Source: Methanocellales archaeon
GTDB lineage: Archaea > Halobacteriota > JAWCLZ01
Length of the DNA stretch: 14,058 nucleotides
Reading direction: 5' to 3'
Assembly (NCBI GenBank): GCA_038850285.1
Contig: JAWCMA010000030.1
Span: 1 to 14,058 of the forward strand
Made by a program: the position numbers and the translations under genes. The notes below the pieces were generated by a model, which worked only from the letters and a program-made list of their open reading frames with translations, was not told the origin of the DNA and ran no database searches. Positions 1 through 10,745 of the stretch are shown here, in pieces (position 1 is the stretch's first letter; each line of letters opens with the position of its first letter).

Positions 1-25
1 GAAATCCTCTTTTTTCTATAAATTT

Positions 26-75
26 TTTTATATAAGGTTCCCCTAATAAATCCTTGTAATGAATTTATTAGGGGA
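26..75 (+). promoter_or_regulatory. TATA box plus 13-bp inverted repeat covering the transposase RBS and start
   Basis: TTTTTATATAA at ~25-35. TCCCCTAATAAAT (39-51) pairs perfectly with ATTTATTAGGGGA (63-75), which includes the GGGG RBS-like run and the A of ATG75. Confidence 0.7.
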
Positions 76-875
76 TGGATATCGTGAATAGATATCTTGG
101 CTTTATTGATATAGCTTTGGGTGTGTGAAGAGTTCGAGAATTCCATTGTATTCTTCGAAGTTTTCTAAGAGGACTTATACGCAGCATCAATTGCTTGCGA
201 TCTTGCTTTTCAAGGAATATTTGAATGAAGATTATCGAGACTTAAGGGATCTTTTGGAATTGATGAGTGGTGTTGTGAGGAAATTGAAGTTAAATTCTAT
301 TCCTCATTTTACTACCCCTCAAAAATTTCTCTCTAGATTTAGCTTAACTCTATTTGAAAAGCTATTGAGGAGTACTCTTGCTCTTTTCTATGCTCGTAGG
401 GAGGGGGTCGAGATTGTTGCAATTGATAGCTCAGGCTTTACAAGTGATCGCGATAGTCTATATTACTCTTTTAGAGCTGAGAAGCTTAGGAAGAGCTTTT
501 TGAAGACTTCTATTGCTATAGATAGTTATAAGCAAGTTGTTATTGCTTGGAAGATAAATAGGACTCCTATTCATGATGTTAAGCTGCTAAGCCATTGCTT
601 AAGAAGTCTCATAGAATTAAGAGGGCTTACTTCTATGTCTTGGATAGGGGCTATGATTCTGAGGCTATACATCGCCTCATTAGAAAGGGGTTAAAGGCTA
701 TTTCTATCATTCCACTTAGAGTTAGGGATAGAAAGCAGGTTCTTGGTAGATATCGCAAGCAAATGCAATCTTTAGACCCAAGATATTATAGGAGGAGCAT
801 AGCTGAAACTAATCTCAGTAGTGAAGCGTAGATTTGGTGAAGAGCTTAAAGCTAGAAATTATCGAAATCAAATTC
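75..875 (+). pseudogene. IS5-family DDE transposase, frameshifted three times and C-terminally truncated
   Basis: Stitched reading: MDIVNRYLGFIDIALGV / (shift ~122) VKSSRIPLYSSKFSKRTYTQHQL..IPHFTT..AIDSSGF..HDVK / (shift ~584) AKPLLKK..LDRGYDSE..YYRRSIAETN / (shift ~812) SVVKRRFGEELKARNYRNQI. The D, D and E motifs are all recognisable. Confidence 0.9.
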
Positions 876-1032: not shown

Positions 1033-1059
1033 ACCTAACATATGCGCTTATAAGAAGTT
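1033..1059 (+). repeat. 27-bp direct repeat copy 1 (candidate tyrosine-recombinase site)
   Basis: ACCTAACATATGCGCTTATAAGAAGTT, 21/27 identical to 1764-1790. Confidence 0.7.
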
Positions 1060-1183
1060 TTTTCGAAGGAAAAATTGGGGTGGAGCCAAGCGGCAGAGCA
1101 AAGGCGGAACCCGCTGTAAGTCCTTTGAGCGTAAGCGAAGACCGAGAGCCAAAGGCTCGGAGGAGGTCGAAGGTGCCGTAGTT

Positions 1184-1198
1184 CGAAAATTATTTAAA
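1184..1198 (+). promoter_or_regulatory. Archaeal BRE+TATA promoter of the HYExAFE gene (probably leaderless mRNA)
   Basis: CGAAAAT-TATTTAAA ends about 22 nt before ATG1221, and no RBS is visible. Confidence 0.6.
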
Positions 1199-1220
1199 AC
1201 AGCTTATCGCATTATCTATT

Positions 1221-1748
1221 ATGACAAAAAGAAAAGGTTCACACAGCCATTACGAATTAATGTTTGAGAGTTTTTTAAGAGAGCAACAATTCCTTTATAT
1301 TGCAATAAATGAAGCAAAGCGTCCAATTTTCAAAGGCGAGAAAGTAAAAAATTTTGATTTTATTGTTGTTTCTAAATATGGAAAACTTATTCTTATGGAC
1401 ATCAAAGGGAAACAATTCCCATACGAATCAAAGTTAGGTAAAAATTATTGGGAAAATTGGGTTGGATTAGATGATGTAAAATTTCTGAAAATGTGGGCTG
1501 AAATTTTTAATACGACTGGGATTATCGTATTCCCGTATTTGATTAAATACAAGGAAGATGAGAAATCATTCAAAGACATTTTCAAATTTAAGGGGAATTC
1601 CTATGGAATTGTTGCGATTGAGGTAAATGAATATCATAAAAATTCTAAACCAAGAAGTAAAGCCATAAAAGGAACTTTTAATGCGATAAGCATCTCAAGA
1701 GAATTATTCTCGAAATTAGCAAAACCTATCTCATTCTTTTTGTTGTAG
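1221..1748 (+). CDS. HYExAFE-family protein, putative PD-(D/E)XK nuclease
   Basis: N-terminal HYELMFE, YIAINEAKR, a KNFDFIV..LILMDIKGKQFP catalytic-like motif and WENWV. Intact 175 aa, visibly AT-richer than the core genes. Confidence 0.8.
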   Translation: MTKRKGSHSHYELMFESFLREQQFLYIAINEAKRPIFKGEKVKNFDFIVVSKYGKLILMDIKGKQFPYESKLGKNYWENWVGLDDVKFLKMWAEIFNTTGIIVFPYLIKYKEDEKSFKDIFKFKGNSYGIVAIEVNEYHKNSKPRSKAIKGTFNAISISRELFSKLAKPISFFLL

Positions 1749-1763
1749 TGCCTAACCGATTGG

Positions 1764-1790
1764 ATTTAACGTATGCGATTATCTGAAGTT
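1764..1790 (+). repeat. 27-bp direct repeat copy 2 (candidate tyrosine-recombinase site)
   Basis: ATTTAACGTATGCGATTATCTGAAGTT, 15 nt after the HYExAFE stop codon. Confidence 0.7.
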
Positions 1791-1941: not shown

Positions 1942-4320
1942 CTATTCATATTTACTACTTGCCACTTCCCTTATTTTTTTAGCCGTTTTTCGACCTATTT
2001 TTTCCACCTTAAGCAATTCCTCAACTGAAGCTGTCATAATCCCCTCTACCGAGCCAAAGTAGCGCAGCAAATTCTTCGCAGCTATTAATCCCACGCCTGG
2101 AATTGCACTCACTAAATATTCCTGCTGCTCTTTAAGCGTGAGTATAGTTTTTCTACCGTGCAAACTTATTTCCCTCTTTTCATCGAATTGCTCTCGCTTA
2201 GCTATGATGTATAGAAGAGCAGCGGTGTCCTCTGGATTAGCAGTGCTGATAATTGGAATTCCAAAGTCAATTGAAATAGAAGCAAGCATGCTGCGCACTG
2301 CATTTGGATTGATCCTCCTAGCAGTATATAATCCCTCGCCCTCTAGAATGAGAACTGGTCTTTCAAAATTCCTAGCAAGTTCCGCCATTTGAGTGAAGAG
2401 ATCTCTCCCTTGAGATCGATCTATGAGCGTGCCTAGGAAGTCTTCTACGGTTTTCCTCTCCACGCCAACTCTCTCAGAGAGAATATAATCTCCAACCTCA
2501 AGAGTCTTAAGGGTAATTATTGCTCCCATTTCCTCAAGAGCCTTGGCCACTGGCGAGCGCATCTCGCGCGCGTCAACATATATATTAACCTTTTTCGCTT
2601 CATTTGAATACTCAAATATTGTTTTCTGAGCTCTATCTACTACCTCGTGGTTCATAGCTGCATTCCTCCTTCTAGCTTCATTTTCAAAGCAATTTGCGTG
2701 CATTACCCCTTCAAAAACAGGTGAATCTGAGATGCGATCCTCAAAATAGTCAAGCATATCTACTTCCTCTTCTAAATTAGCTAGCTCAGCTTGCATTTCC
2801 CTTATCCTCTTATTCATTTCTCTTTCCTTTCTATGGCTGATCCAGAAATAAGCTTCATCTCTCGTTCCCTTTGCGATGAGGACAATTATTCTGCCAACTC
2901 TATGTCTGCCAGTTCTCCCTCTTCTTTGAATACTTCTAATTTCAGATGGAACTGGTTCGTAGAATAATACCAAGTCGGTAGAGGGAATATCTAATCCTTC
3001 TTCAGCAACTGAAGTTGCAACAAGTACATTGTAATCTCCAGCTTTGAATTTCTCCAGAATTTCAACCTGCTGCTTTTGACTAAGTCCTTTATCTTCAAAT
3101 TTGCTTGCTTGTCCCACGAATCGCACTGGCTTGATGTTACCGCTGGAAAGCATTTCAGTTACAAGTTCAGCGGTATCCCTAAAATTGGTGAAGATAATTA
3201 TTCTTGAATCTGGATTTCGCTCAAGTTCTCGGGTAACAATCTTTTTAACCATCTCTAGTTTGGGAAAAGTAGCTCTAGAGTTCTTCGCAAGCATAATTGC
3301 ACGCTTTATATTCTCCTCGCTCAATATCCTCTTAGATGCCTTGCTTCCCCCTTTAGAGGAAGCTTCACTGCTTAAGCGCTCGAAGTATTTCCTCAAAGCA
3401 TCTATACCTTGTGTTTCACAAAGCTCTATACCGTGCTTCAACTTCAAGATCTCAGCAGTTAAAGAAAGCGCGTGATAGAGCTGCGGACTTTTCTTCGTTG
3501 CAAGCTCAGCTTGAATCTGCTGCTGAAGCTGCAGAAGTTCTCTCTTCAGCTGTGCTTGCTCTCTTCGCTCAACGATGCCGGAGTTAATTAGCTCAGCTGT
3601 TCTAGCAGCAAGCACACTTTCAAGCAGCCTTTTAATCTCAAGAACCTCGCTCGGTAGCTTGACATATCTCCACTCTATATCTTTTCTATAGACATATGGA
3701 GCTACATCTGCATCTTGCTCAGTTCGAAGTTCCACAGCAGATATATGAAGATTTTTACATACCTCATCGATCTTTAATTCATCGCTACCGGGAGAAGCTG
3801 TGATGCCTAGGATTAAAGGATGCTTAGCTTGAACTACATATTTATTCGCAATGTAAACATAGGAATAGCCGCCTGTTGCTCTATGCGCTTCATCGAAGGT
3901 GAGGTGAACTACATTTGAAAGCTCTAGGCGCTTAGCCATGAGGTCGTTCTCAATAACTTGAGGGGTAGATACAATAACCCTAGCTTTACTCCAGAGCTCT
4001 CTTCTTTTCTCAATTGATACCTCTCCAGTGAAGATCGCGATCTCCTCGGGCTTCACAAGTAATAGTTTTTTTAGAAATTGAGCGTGCTGCTCAACCAGTG
4101 GCTTAGTTGGCGATAAAATCAAGGCTTTGCCATCTGGGAAATCTTTGAGCCTGCTAGCGATAACTAGGAGTGCAATTATAGTTTTTCCCAAGCCAGTTGG
4201 CAATACAGCAAGTGTAGATTTTTGAAGAGCAGTTGCTGCGATTGCAAGTTGATATAATCGCTTCTCTATGCTATTTGGTTTTATTAACACGTGCTCTAGG
4301 TATTCATCTTCCACTTCCAC
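1942..4320 (-). CDS. hef: Hef (FANCM/XPF-like) DEAH helicase with ERCC4 nuclease and HhH domains
   Basis: PTGLGKT, FDEAHRA, TASPG, EEGLDIP, QRRGRTGR; ERCC4 motifs VDARE..GDY..VERKT..DF; C-terminal HhH pair (IPGVG, VEKIG). Confidence 0.96.
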   Translation of the reverse strand: MEVEDEYLEHVLIKPNSIEKRLYQLAIAATALQKSTLAVLPTGLGKTIIALLVIASRLKDFPDGKALILSPTKPLVEQHAQFLKKLLLVKPEEIAIFTGEVSIEKRRELWSKARVIVSTPQVIENDLMAKRLELSNVVHLTFDEAHRATGGYSYVYIANKYVVQAKHPLILGITASPGSDELKIDEVCKNLHISAVELRTEQDADVAPYVYRKDIEWRYVKLPSEVLEIKRLLESVLAARTAELINSGIVERREQAQLKRELLQLQQQIQAELATKKSPQLYHALSLTAEILKLKHGIELCETQGIDALRKYFERLSSEASSKGGSKASKRILSEENIKRAIMLAKNSRATFPKLEMVKKIVTRELERNPDSRIIIFTNFRDTAELVTEMLSSGNIKPVRFVGQASKFEDKGLSQKQQVEILEKFKAGDYNVLVATSVAEEGLDIPSTDLVLFYEPVPSEIRSIQRRGRTGRHRVGRIIVLIAKGTRDEAYFWISHRKEREMNKRIREMQAELANLEEEVDMLDYFEDRISDSPVFEGVMHANCFENEARRRNAAMNHEVVDRAQKTIFEYSNEAKKVNIYVDAREMRSPVAKALEEMGAIITLKTLEVGDYILSERVGVERKTVEDFLGTLIDRSQGRDLFTQMAELARNFERPVLILEGEGLYTARRINPNAVRSMLASISIDFGIPIISTANPEDTAALLYIIAKREQFDEKREISLHGRKTILTLKEQQEYLVSAIPGVGLIAAKNLLRYFGSVEGIMTASVEELLKVEKIGRKTAKKIREVASSKYE

Positions 4321-4405
4321 AGCTGACCCTTTTTAATAACATATTGCAGAACTTTAAAAGTTTTGATAGCAGAATGAAAGTACTTGTACTTAAAATTAAA
4401 TTTAA

Positions 4406-4440
4406 TAAAATTAAAATTAAAATTAAAATTAAAATTAAAA
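4406..4440 (-). repeat. (TTAAAA)n tandem repeat, T-rich on the minus strand; likely terminator region of the antiporter gene
   Basis: Five exact TTAAAA units at 4411-4440 plus a partial unit, directly after the antiporter stop. Confidence 0.7.
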
Positions 4441-4443
4441 AAG

Positions 4444-6159: not shown

Positions 6160-6203
6160 TTCGGGAGAATAGAAAATAGAAATAGAAACGAAAAATACAT
6201 ATT

Positions 6204-6390
6204 GAGCGCGTTAAACTTGCGAGTACCTCTCTTCAGTAACCATTCCCACCACTACATCTCCTTCTTTCACAAGCACTGCCCCACTGCGATGCCTGGACAT
6301 TTGATTTATGACATCCTGCAAAGTGGAAGTGATTTGTACCGAGGGAATATCAACTCGCATAAAATCCTTGACCTTTCCCTTTATCACCAT
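6204..6390 (-). pseudogene. CBS-domain protein 1, N-terminal half (inverted)
   Basis: ATG6390 with upstream AGGAG; MVIKGKVKDFMRVDIPSVQITSTLQDVINQMSRHRSGAVLVKEGDVVVGMVTE.. to TAA at 6211-6213. Not in the ORF track. Confidence 0.85.
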
Positions 6391-6427
6391 CTCTATTCTC
6401 TCCTTGCTTTATAGCTTTACTTATTAA

Positions 6428-6641
6428 TATGGGAAGGATACCAGCGAGCTAAAGGTGGATGGATTCATGATGGCTTGCAAGTTCGAGGGTGCCAATCCTT
6501 GTATACAAATCGATGAGAATTCAGATATAAGATGTATTCAAGGTAATGAATGCAAGGGATGTAGGAATAGATCATTTATTAGTCTGGGGCAAGCGTGGTC
6601 TAGCTGGTGCGATTTCCTTTAGAGATATAATTAAAGGGTGA
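6428..6641 (+). pseudogene. CBS-domain protein 1, C-terminal half (no start codon, one frameshift)
   Basis: YGKDTSELKVDGFMMACKFEGANPCIQIDENSDI / (shift ~6530) DVFKVMNARDVGIDHLLVWGKRGLAGAISFRDIIKG*. Confidence 0.8.
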
Positions 6642-6645
6642 AGCT

Positions 6646-7009
6646 ATGAAGCTCAAGGGAAATGTTAGAGATTTCATGAGAATTGATTTACCAGTGGTAA
6701 GTGGAGATGCAACGATGCAGGAAGTGGTTAGCAAGATGAAGCAAGAGGACACAGACTTGTTTTGGTGAAAGAGGAAGAGAATGTAATTGGAATGGTTACA
6801 GATCGCGAGCTGGTTGATTGCTTAGCCAAGGGAGAGGACCTTTCAAAGGTCAAGGTGAAGAAATACATGGAAGCATACTTTAGGTGGGCCGAGTCCCTAC
6901 TGGCAGGTTAATGGTTGCAGCTGGCATAGACCATTTACTGGTCTGTAAGCCCAAGGAGCTAGCTGGCGTTGTTTCAATGGGAGATATAATTGAATATCTA
7001 GCTAGATAA
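6646..7009 (+). pseudogene. CBS-domain protein 2, a frameshifted paralog of protein 1
   Basis: RBS GGGTGA; MKLKGNVRDFMRIDLPVV..EDTD / (shift ~6757) VLVKEEENVIGMVTDRELVDCLAKGEDLSKVKVKKYM.. / (shift with probable deletion ~6875-6905) RLMVAAGIDHLLVCKPKELAGVVSMGDIIEYLAR*. Confidence 0.85.
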
Positions 7010-8600: not shown

Positions 8601-10148
8601 GTGCAGGTGGTAGTCTTTTATTCCACCAGTTTAATTAAGCGCCTTCCAGTTGAAAAAGTGCAGATTTTCGATACCACACTTAGAGATGGAGAGCAAACCC
8701 CAGGGGTCTCGCTTACAGTTGAGGAAAAACTTGCCATAGCTAAGCAGCTGGATAAACTTGGAGTGGATATAATTGAAGCCGGCTTCCCCATAACCTCCAA
8801 GGGGGAGAAAACCAGTGTTAAGAAAATTGCCTCAGCAGGGTTAAATGCCACGATATGCGGCTTAGCAAGGGTAACCCAGAGCGATATTCAAACTGCTCTT
8901 GACTGCGATGTAGATATGGTGCATATCTTCGTTTCAACCTCAGATATCCAGATTAAGCATACTATAAAGAAAACTAAAGAAGAAATCATTCAGCTTGCAG
9001 TTGAAGGCACTGAGATGGTGAAGAGCCACGGTAGAATATGTCTATTCTCAGCCATGGATGCAACTCGCACTGATTTAAATTTCCTGCTTGAGATAAATAA
9101 AGCAGTGGAAAAAGCAGGCGTGGACTGCATCAACATACCTGATACCGTTGGGGTTATGGTGCCCTCCGCCACCTATGAGCTTATCTCCAGAGTTAGAAAT
9201 GCAGTTAAAGTGCCAATTCACATCCACTGCCACAATGACTTTGGATTAGCAGTTGCCAATTCAATTGCAGCACTTGAAGCTGGAGCAAACTGCGTGCAGG
9301 TAACAATAAATCGCCTTGGAGAAAGAGCGGGCAATGCTGATCTAGCTGAAACAGTCATGACAATACATTCAATCTATGGAGCTAAAACGAATATCAAAAC
9401 TCAATATCTAGTGGAAACCTCAAAATTGGTGGAGCGTTTCACAGGCATTAAAATGCCTCCCAATACCCCTGTAGTTGGAGATAATGCTTTTTCCCATGAA
9501 AGCGGGATTCACACCCACGGGGTAATTCAAAGAGCAGAAACCTTTGAACCCGGGGTTATGACTCCTGAGATGGTTGGACATAGGCGGAGGATTGTTCACG
9601 GCAAACACGCTGGGAAGCACGGGGTTAAAAAAACTTTAAATGAAGCTGGAATATACCCAGATGAAGAGCAGCTCGCGGAAATTCTGGAGAGAATCAAGGA
9701 CTTGGGGGATAAGGGCAAGCGCGTTACAGAGGCAGATCTATTTGCAATTGCAGAAGGAGTAATGGGCAAAGTGGCGAGGGAAAAGCGCGCTTTTGTGCTC
9801 AAAGAAATCACAGTTATAACTGGCAATAAAATAACGCCCACCGCGAGTGTTAAAGCAGTTTTCAATGGAGAGGAAAAACTATCTGCTCGAACTGGAGTTG
9901 GACCTGTGGATGCAGCGCTTAATGCAGTGCAAAGCATACTAGGGGAGAAGGCAAAGATCAAGCTTCGGGATTTCAGCCTCGAAGCTATAACTGGCGGGAG
10001 CGATGCTCTCGCGGAGGTTATAGTTTCAGTTGAAGCTGAAAAAAGCGGCGTTGTTTCAGCGAGAGCAGCACGCGAGGACATAGTCATGGCCTCGGTTGAG
10101 GCACTTATAAGCGCGATAAATCGCTTAATGCTGCTTAAAAAGAAGTAA
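8601..10148 (+). CDS. leuA: 2-isopropylmalate synthase (LeuA/CimA family) with C-terminal allosteric domain
   Basis: [40 protein letters not shown] and GPVDA. LeuA versus citramalate synthase cannot be settled by eye, and the GTG start is uncertain. Confidence 0.8.
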
Positions 10149-10214
10149 AAAATCTTTCACAAACTATTTGAACATTGCGAGTAAATTTAAAACTATTATT
10201 TGGAGAATATTCTC

Positions 10215-10745
10215 ATGCCCAAGGAGACCGTTGAGTCTTTGAAGAATAGGCTGGAGACCTTTCGCGCTAAACTCGTGCCTAAGAAAGAGAAAACTAGGAA
10301 GATAGGTTTGTTGGTAGACGGCCCCAATATGCTTCGCAAGGAATTTGCAATAGACCTTGAGGAAATTAGGGAGATTTTAAGGGAATATGGCAGCATTAAA
10401 GTGGGAAAGGTTTTCCTCAATCAATATGCCTCTGAAAAACTCGTGGAGGCAATTGAGAATCAAGGATTTGAAGCGGTTATTAGCTCTGGAGATGTGGATG
10501 TACGCCTCGCGATCGAGGCTACTGAGTTGATTTTCAACCCCAATATCGATACCATAGCACTTGTAACTAGAGATGCTGATTTCAAGCCAATATTGAGCAA
10601 GGCAATGCAGCATGGCAAGGAAACCATAATATTCGGCGCCGAGCCAGGCTTTTCAATCGCACTTAAAAACAGCGCAGATTATGTGATAATTTTAAATGAA
10701 GGGAAGCCACTTCCTCTTCCAACTCTTATGCAAAATGGTGAATGA
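10215..10745 (+). CDS. NYN-domain (LabA/DUF88, TIGR00288-like) protein
   Basis: [33 protein letters not shown]10215 follows GGAG; TTG10200 is the alternative start. Confidence 0.92.

Follow-up and report, generated by a model that had tools for sequence, protein, structure and literature searches.

A probable integron-type cassette between two degenerate attC-like hairpin sites in a Methanocellales archaeon

Two similar 27-bp sequences bracket a gene of the HYExAFE family in a 14,058-nt stretch of DNA from a Methanocellales archaeon. The question raised by this locus is whether the repeats are recombination sites that delimit a mobile gene cassette and, if so, to which known system they belong. 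The stretch, referred to below as the window, is the whole of contig C30 (14,058 nt) in an assembly of 1.28 Mb and 39 contigs. An initial annotation had described the repeats as dif/pdif-like sites for a tyrosine recombinase. Our analysis indicates that the region from approximately 1117 to 1845 is probably a single integron-type cassette, carrying a HYExAFE nuclease-like gene, between two degenerate archaeal attC-like sites of which the 27-mers form only a part.

Repeats, hairpin sites and the HYExAFE gene

The 27-mers were found at 1033-1059 and 1764-1790 as annotated, with 21 identical positions and a spacing of 731 bp. The top-scoring 27-nt comparison at this spacing reached 22 of 27 identities, the longest run of exact identity between the copies was 6 nt, and the pair was absent from the top 20 repeat families of the window in a repeat search performed with a seed of 8. 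First-order Markov simulations predicted 0.18 comparable pairs in the window at distances of 1 kb or less and 1.8 at any spacing, versus 2 and 9, respectively, in the real window. The degenerate motif proposed by the initial annotation, with up to three mismatches, occurred at two places in the 1.28-Mb assembly and the reversed control pattern at one. Each copy had also been reported to lie just after the end of a coding sequence. This holds for copy 2, which begins 16 nt past the stop codon of the HYExAFE gene, whereas copy 1 begins 11 nt past the stop of a 62-aa frame that is only the fragment of a Ku pseudogene.

A homologous cassette is present in a metagenome-assembled genome (MAG) of Micrarchaeota, at a locus designated L028. 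Positions 1168-1796 of the window and 2947-3576 of L028 are 84.6% identical at the DNA level, and the HYExAFE proteins are 89% identical. In L028, the motif is found on both sides of the HYExAFE gene, in sites that are intact. A third, more divergent copy is located 1 kb upstream, directly after a gene pair identified by eye as IscS-IscU. In this genome, the motif is the 5' half of an element of about 100 nt comprising, in order, AAC(A), a 3-nt bulge, an 11-nt arm, a hairpin, the conserved sequence TTTGGG, a second variable hairpin, a complementary 11-nt arm and TGTT. In each of the three copies the long stem is paired, although its letters differ. In an intact site, a 9-bp outer stem (six cassette-specific bases and AAC/GTT) is followed by a 3-nt bulge on the 5' side, an inner stem of 11 bp that co-varies, and a variable tip with branches. 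The 27-bp site with a 4-nt centre that had been proposed is really the 5' half of an imperfect palindrome of about 100 nt.

A covariance model, R1, was built from the three L028 copies, and a broader model, R2, was also used. For the 15 modelled pairs of the 4-bp and 11-bp helices, 90.8% of the cells were paired versus 33-48.5% with the partner slid, 12 of the 15 pairs changed on both sides and none of 500 shuffles reached the observed values. These figures were obtained on the alignment of the R1 matches from the fetched loci, whose fitting to the model biases it towards pairing. The AAC and GTT triplets were conserved in alignments A3 and A4, as they are in attC sites, and the top strand folded 5-10 kcal/mol better than the bottom strand.

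The site family is present in two phyla. Of 151 genomes sampled from the phylum to which the Micrarchaeota MAG belongs, 7 contained R1 matches at E ≤ 0.01 (17 matches in all), and R1 gave 21 matches at E ≤ 10 on the fetched loci. With R2, sites were detected in 12 of 41 genomes of the phylum of the window, among them the genome of the window itself (G000); the copies often cluster, and their number reaches 18 in a genome. R2 revealed no site in two genomes of the same genus. At least 120 stretches were recovered by a motif scan of metagenomes; the counts of a short motif with one mismatch in two Micrarchaeota genomes were at the control level. No further copy of the degenerate motif was found in the assembly of the window.

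The two window sites are decayed. Site W_A (1027-1125, + strand), whose 5' half holds repeat copy 1, scored 38.2 bits with R2 (E of 5e-6 in 35 kb and of 1.9e-4 genome-wide). Site W_B (1758-1853, + strand), which is more decayed and holds repeat copy 2, was the second-best match in the window (17.4 bits). Model R1 missed both sites at E ≤ 10, and the broader R2 was needed. Intact homologues of W_A are present in alignment A3, and W_B is homologous to the site following the HYExAFE gene in L028. According to the R2 alignment, 7 nt of the 3' stem arm are absent from W_A and from W_B, so that the outer and inner boxes of the window copies do not pair as those of attC. W_A is also short of one T of the GTT, and AAC is kept in both copies. 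With these losses, the window copies do not look like functional sites. The absence of a GTTRRRY arm completing an attC was correctly noted for the window, although only because the 3' arms are partly lost. The further GCCTAAC noted at 1750-1756 is matched by unrelated letters in the homologous cassette and seems to be incidental.

A GC-rich stretch extending from approximately 1060 to 1111 had been described as a structured leader of the gene. It corresponds to the branched tip of W_A. It folded no better than shuffles (z = -1.41 and -0.60 on the two strands, 19 of 200 shuffles folding as well for z = -1.41), and a stand-alone RNA at this position was rejected since the fold was not above shuffles on either strand. 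Searches for tRNA, tmRNA and Rfam families revealed none of relevance in the window, and likewise in L028; attC is not among the families represented in Rfam.

The HYExAFE-family gene (1221-1748, + strand) encodes a protein of 175 residues matching NF038001 over its full length (145.9 bits for a cut-off of 60, residues 8-171 on model positions 3-164 of 166). The family itself is uncharacterised; no literature was found on HYExAFE, and no relative of the protein was found by sequence in the PDB. A motif read by eye suggests a PD-(D/E)xK-type nuclease. In the 5' region of the cassette (1126-1220, + strand), an A+T-rich box located about 25-35 nt before the ATG is a candidate for the gene's own archaeal promoter. 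The G+C content of the gene is 0.26-0.33 versus 0.41 for the genome, in which the gene is present in a single copy. None of 40 related genomes contained an NF038001 match above the cut-off. No site was found, by eye or with R2 with its filters off, near a second HYExAFE locus (L029, 62% identity).

Arrays of sites, cassette ends and linked recombinases

Within a contig or an array, the sites are co-oriented. Seven of the eight intervals between the sites of Micrarchaeota contained one open reading frame (ORF) and the remaining one contained three. The 20 intervals in the phylum of the window contained no ORF (1 interval), one ORF (9), two ORFs (6) or three ORFs (4). Ten cassette ORFs of the Micrarchaeota loci were scanned. 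Seven were of accessory type, encoding an HXXEE membrane protein, an AlkD-like repair protein, a protein with a tRNA-binding domain, two N6/N4 methylases, an HxlR regulator and a GNAT acetyltransferase; no Pfam family was matched by the remaining three. These loci are flanked by core genes, for example those encoding the PolD large subunit and a KH protein.

The ends of the cassettes are related in a specific manner. The hexamer just beyond the GTT of a site is complementary to the hexamer that precedes the AAC of the following site, and not to that of its own site. In Micrarchaeota, eight adjacent pairs gave 6, 6, 5, 2, 3, 6, 4 and 6 matches of 6 (38/48 in total). Control means were 2.1/6 when the two flanks of one site were compared and 2.38/6 for 360 pairs drawn from separate loci. 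In the phylum of the window, 20 independent adjacent pairs gave 104/120, versus control means of 3.3/6. None of 20,000 random pairings reached the observed total in either set. Since the ends of a unit are complementary, an inter-site unit that was circularised would rebuild one complete hairpin site. The start of a cassette pairs with its own end, as in the chimeric sites of integron cassettes, and this applies to the window. The outer 3' half-site of W_A (R'-like, 1116-1125, + strand), which is the start of the HYExAFE cassette under the cassette model, is complementary at 5 of 6 positions to the bases before the AAC of W_B, versus 3 of 6 for W_A's own 5' flank. Comparison of the HYExAFE cassette ends of the window and of Micrarchaeota, with flanks read by eye, revealed that three of the six pairs differ and that each difference keeps the pairing.

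The locus between the KH and PolD genes is filled in one genome and empty in others. G046 holds a site-methylase-site block in 1.8 kb, and the same locus of G054 and G067 comprises about 600 nt, in which no site was found even with filters off. A different insertion, of about 3 kb and without a hairpin site, is present at this position in G132 (L106, G132:C1:93500-100500), and the KH-PolD locus may be a general insertion hot spot. At another locus (L069, G115:C2), near-identical sites at 8754-8855 and 10214-10314 flank two cassettes (AlkD-like and tRNA-binding-domain) separated by a different site, in what looks like a recent duplication or insertion event.

A tyrosine recombinase related to XerA and IntI is encoded 0.5-2.4 kb from an array in four genomes. 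All three top-ranking TIGR02249 matches in the set of 151 genomes came from site-bearing genomes, and the next best match scored 56 bits. The scores were 106 bits in G180 and 98 + 84 bits in G115, where the gene lies 1.2 kb from a site; G046 harbors a recombinase pseudogene 2.4 kb from its array. Homologues in the phylum of the window were found in G028 and G008, 1.0 and 0.5 kb from arrays, respectively. The array-linked proteins matched the XerA model NF040815 best, followed by TIGR02249, ahead of XerD and XerC. Their scores were below the cut-offs of both models: 208.9 (G115) and 153.1 bits (G180) for an NF040815 cut-off of 220, and 142-179 bits (179.3 at the highest) for a TIGR02249 cut-off of 265. 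They are 41-49% identical to each other across phyla and 32-39% identical to the XerA of the window genome. Their best solved relatives are VchIntIA (2a3v, 156 bits) and XerA (5hxy, 154 bits). The R, K, HxxR, H and Y residues were visible by eye in the translations of these simple two-domain proteins.

The genome of the window encodes one tyrosine recombinase (single PF00589 match), which is a bona fide XerA located on contig C1 (257 bits with NF040815), and no cognate array-type recombinase was found in it. The initial annotation was therefore right that the window encodes no recombinase, and its proposal of a XerA- or IntI-like enzyme encoded elsewhere fits the genes found near arrays in the four genomes. 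Its central claim, that sites of the tyrosine-recombinase type delimit a single-gene cassette, is supported by the co-oriented arrays, the complementarity of cassette ends, the empty loci and the linked recombinases of relatives. Since the 3' stem arms have been lost from the window sites and the assembly revealed no cognate recombinase, we read the HYExAFE cassette as an immobilised relic. Its gene may still be expressed.

Two further observations concern the recombinase genes. A truncated IntI gene (L239, G038:C69:2-730) scored 281.5 bits with TIGR02249, which is above the cut-off, and displays the IntI-specific motif by eye. G038 carries 16 hairpin sites and the IntI fragment is located on a short contig, unlinked to them; it may be a bacterial contamination. 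In G028 (L240, G028:C4), an ORF of 322 codons (2357-3325) separates the recombinase gene from the first site, and G115 contains in the matching position a membrane-type ORF of 298 codons with weak Pfam matches (E of 0.0008-0.009, below cut-offs). Either product could be an accessory factor.

Comparison with known systems and weighing of explanations

In the mechanism that we envisage, a XerA/IntI-like tyrosine recombinase would bind the folded single strand of a site, the likely substrate being the G.T-tolerant strand. Strand exchange at the conserved triplet would lead to insertion or excision of cassettes at existing sites. The HYExAFE cassette was probably acquired by horizontal transfer, its nearest relative being in the Micrarchaeota MAG. 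It is now part of a strain-variable island, together with the remnant of an IS5-family insertion sequence (IS) and the Ku fragment, between a TrpB-like gene and the hef nuclease/helicase gene.

Integrons are the classic bacterial gene-capture system. The closest known system is the integron cassette with its attC site, of which we consider the present site family, with moderate confidence, to be a variant. The sites are imperfect palindromes whose length of about 100 nt falls into the 57-142 nt range of attC sites (PMC9668308; PMC2727003; PMC4889954). As in attC sites, the outer boxes have AAC and GTT at their inner ends and are accompanied by a second, inner stem, one arm carries additional unpaired bases, the tip is variable and in some cases branched, and structure is better conserved than sequence. 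The arrays are co-oriented and consist mostly of single accessory genes, the clusters are often without a nearby integrase, and the outer box is chimeric. The cassette ends pair over 9 nt; in integron cassettes, R'/R'' pairing extends to 9-11 nt (PMC2727003). The present sites differ from attC in having a tip with the conserved junction motifs GAAG and TTTGGG. They also differ from integrons in that no attI-like platform was recognised, in that the linked recombinase has no IntI-specific domain, in the short arrays scattered over many loci and in the mixed orientation of ORFs in Micrarchaeota.

In archaea, integrons were described only in 2022, for the most part as clusters without an integrase that a bacterial attC model detected (PMC9668308). 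'Micrarchaeota' and 'Halobacteriota' are absent from the main text of this report, and its figures or data files may list them. We found no description of such a system in the literature examined, which included PMC8138268.

Several observations weigh against the integron-type cassette. W_B is marginal by itself (E = 0.2), and the bare 27-nt repeat alone barely exceeds chance. The extra bases on the R''-L'' arm form one 3-nt bulge, opposite 0-1 nt, and a symmetric spacer is absent, as are isolated extrahelical bases within the inner stem, in contrast to the two unpaired 5-nt spacers and two or three isolated extrahelical bases of attC (PMC2727003). The array-linked recombinases lack the IntI-specific domain, located near patch III, by which integron integrases are defined; their matches skip TIGR02249 positions ~170-237. 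The direction of the recombinase gene is inconstant, being the same as that of the sites in G115 and G046 and opposite in G028 and G008. The direction of ORFs relative to sites is mixed in a hand tally of Micrarchaeota and the window (5 same, 4 opposite), and in the phylum of the window 6 ORFs have the same direction and 27 the opposite one, placing the HYExAFE gene in the minority orientation. Empty alleles retaining one repeat had been anticipated; the empty KH-PolD loci of G054 and G067 hold no solitary site, so that the arrival of a first site at a locus is not accounted for by the cassette model. No circle junction or excision product was detected in public contigs, which were limited to Logan contigs from one study of hot-spring metagenomes, the uncovered parts being uninformative. 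Finally, the excess of G.T over A.C pairs on the top strand (22:6 and 44:12) reveals that one strand is under selection for pairing, which would fit single-stranded DNA and RNA alike.

The latter bias, together with the co-variation of the stems, the better folding of the top strand, the conserved loop and junction motifs, the intergenic location and the presence of up to 18 copies per genome, would also be expected of structured intergenic RNAs or of repeats resembling repetitive extragenic palindromes or miniature inverted-repeat transposable elements (MITEs), which would act as terminators, processing signals or small RNAs and merely lie between genes. We consider this explanation unlikely. 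It does not predict that the flank of one element is complementary to the flank of the next and not to its own. In addition, a tyrosine recombinase is linked to the elements in four genomes, and one and the same gene lies between elements of this kind in two phyla, where the genomic surroundings differ. The elements of Micrarchaeota have no uniform orientation relative to adjacent genes, and none of the sequences matched an Rfam family. IS or MITE ends would be terminal inverted repeats of one element, in numerous near-identical copies and with target-site duplications. The sites do not have these properties, since their own flanks are non-complementary (2.1-3.3/6), the changes in the stems are compensatory and the motif occurs only twice in the genome. 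The dif site is a 28-bp duplex with two 11-bp arms and a 6-bp centre, and pdif modules are flanked by alternating sites. The 27-mers could be double-stranded sites of this type moved by the host XerA, and the initial annotation had noted a resemblance to dif arms. The linked recombinases are XerA-like by family model (NF040815 best, 208.9 bits) and share the simple two-domain organization of archaeal XerA and bacterial XerC/D, and the genome encodes one XerA. However, conservation and co-variation span a hairpin of about 100 nt and not a 28-bp duplex, and neighbouring sites are direct and not alternating. Elsewhere in the genome the motif does not occur, showing that it is not the chromosomal dif, and the window copies are without half of the structure. 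Long hairpins in arrays around accessory genes contrast with the one chromosomal site of XerA/dif, and the array-linked proteins are closer to each other than to the XerA of the window genome. Duplex sites of the Xer/dif type are accordingly quite improbable.

Two explanations concern the window itself. The block from 1 to 1938 might have been joined to hef by an assembly error, the cassette belonging to another organism such as a Micrarchaeota cell. The assembly graph branches exactly at 1938/1939, with an overlap of 99 nt with contig C11. The nearest relative of the cassette is in a Micrarchaeota MAG, a Micrarchaeota-like site is present in the same metagenomes, and the one public contig that crosses the joint has only 25 nt on its right side. 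Against such a chimera, a graph built on 99-mers requires reads spanning the joint, and the word depth of contigs over 901-1950 (0-6.8) is similar to that of hef (0-9.6), although contig depth is a poor measure. Furthermore, another part of the genome contains a copy 88% identical to the IS5 remnant, and the window sites are decayed, unlike those of the Micrarchaeota genomes. A chimeric joint therefore appears very unlikely. That the 27-mers resemble each other by chance, as A+T-rich spacer sequences, is more remote still. The real window contained nine comparable pairs at any spacing, and 0.18 were expected at 1 kb or less; however, both copies align to a structured family in other genomes, and the homologous cassette of L028 has the motif on both sides.

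Beyond the HYExAFE cassette, the results raise the possibility that at least two archaeal phyla, one of them belonging to DPANN (Micrarchaeota) and the other being that of the window, carry a gene-capture system analogous to integrons. Its recombinase would be a XerA-like enzyme devoid of the IntI-specific domain, its sites would have an architecture of their own (a 3-nt bulge and a three-way tip with conserved motifs), and these sites would be spread over many chromosomal loci instead of being gathered on one platform. We advance this proposal tentatively, as one that may well prove incorrect. If it is true, gene capture by recombination of folded DNA is not tied to IntI, as the linked recombinase has no copy of a domain thought necessary for integron recombination. 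A concrete pair of enzyme and site would be available for testing, and a mechanism of gene flow between the tiny DPANN archaea and other archaea would be provided. In that case, the HYExAFE cassette would be the fossil trace of cassette exchange between a cell of the Micrarchaeota type and an archaeon related to methanogens, both living in one hot spring. The window taken alone is of modest significance, as it contains one decayed, probably immobile cassette in a variable island.

The variable island and its surroundings

The left end of the window (1-870, + strand), which coincides with the start of the contig, is occupied by a remnant of an IS5-family insertion sequence. The transposase extends over two frames (125-694 and 595-831) and its 3' end is cut off. 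The frames scored 90.1 and 27.7 bits with NF033579, both under the cut-off of 140 bits, and PF01609 was matched weakly. A partial copy on contig C2 (G000:C2:88995-89370) is 87.8% identical over 376 nt to positions 514-873 of the window. Neither copy has an intact transposase, and the start of the contig resembles the end of the element.

The IS5 remnant is followed by a fragment of a gene encoding Ku, a protein of non-homologous end joining (843-1007, + strand; PF02735, 32.3 bits; TIGR02772, 40.3 bits; model positions ~85-137). This fragment of 55 residues is the sole Ku sequence of the assembly and is 58% identical over 55 aa to a Ku protein of the same genus. From position 1006 onward, the window instead shows homology to DNA flanking a site in L028. 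Continuation of the Ku gene through repeat copy 1 was considered and rejected, since extensions to 1043 and 1121 were weak by profile and tblastn searches and homology to L028 starts at 1006. No remainder of the Ku gene was found after repeat copy 2. Intact Ku genes are present in all three genomes examined in the same family, one of which contains two. The lineage may have lost non-homologous end joining, or the Ku gene may be unassembled (completeness of 93%).

About 190 nt of spacer separate the HYExAFE gene from hef. To the right of W_B, an A+T-rich spacer (1854-1938) reaches the boundary of the island, at which contig C11 provides an alternative joint. The hef gene (1942-4320, - strand; NF010337, 1069 bits) is the first conserved core gene beyond it. 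Its DNA is 84-86% identical to that of genomes of the same genus, the match starting exactly at the hef stop codon. In two of these genomes, a gene of 460 codons, which appears by eye to be TrpB-like, ends directly against this stop codon. The end of C11 comprises the same 460-codon gene, about 58 nt and then 99 nt that are 100% identical to positions 1939-2037 of the window, as expected for a k-mer overlap. This alternative joint indicates that everything to the left of 1938/1939 is a variable island, and the assembly graph contains both the 'empty' and the 'filled' joint. The breakpoint is located three bases past the hef stop codon, outside any repeat. It is the sole presence/absence breakpoint seen in this assembly, and in this respect the initial annotation is not supported.

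The public contigs confirm pieces of the region. None bridges 1938/1939 with at least 31 nt on each side, the single contig across it having 25 nt on the right as mentioned above. A joint from 1079 to 1757 (X2; 24-nt side, depth of 12.8) was considered as an excision product and rejected, since its loose end resembles a site of the type found in G046, from another organism.

Repeats of other kinds are present farther to the right. An A+T-rich tandem repeat with units of about 15-18 nt (4382-4443) lies between hef and the gene of a Na+/H+ exchanger. The region 6200-7000 contains long imperfect inverted and direct repeats among short ORFs of both strands, including inverted-repeat arms of 54 nt (6337-6390 and 6646-6699) and a direct repeat (6600/6959), which may reflect paralogous small domains.

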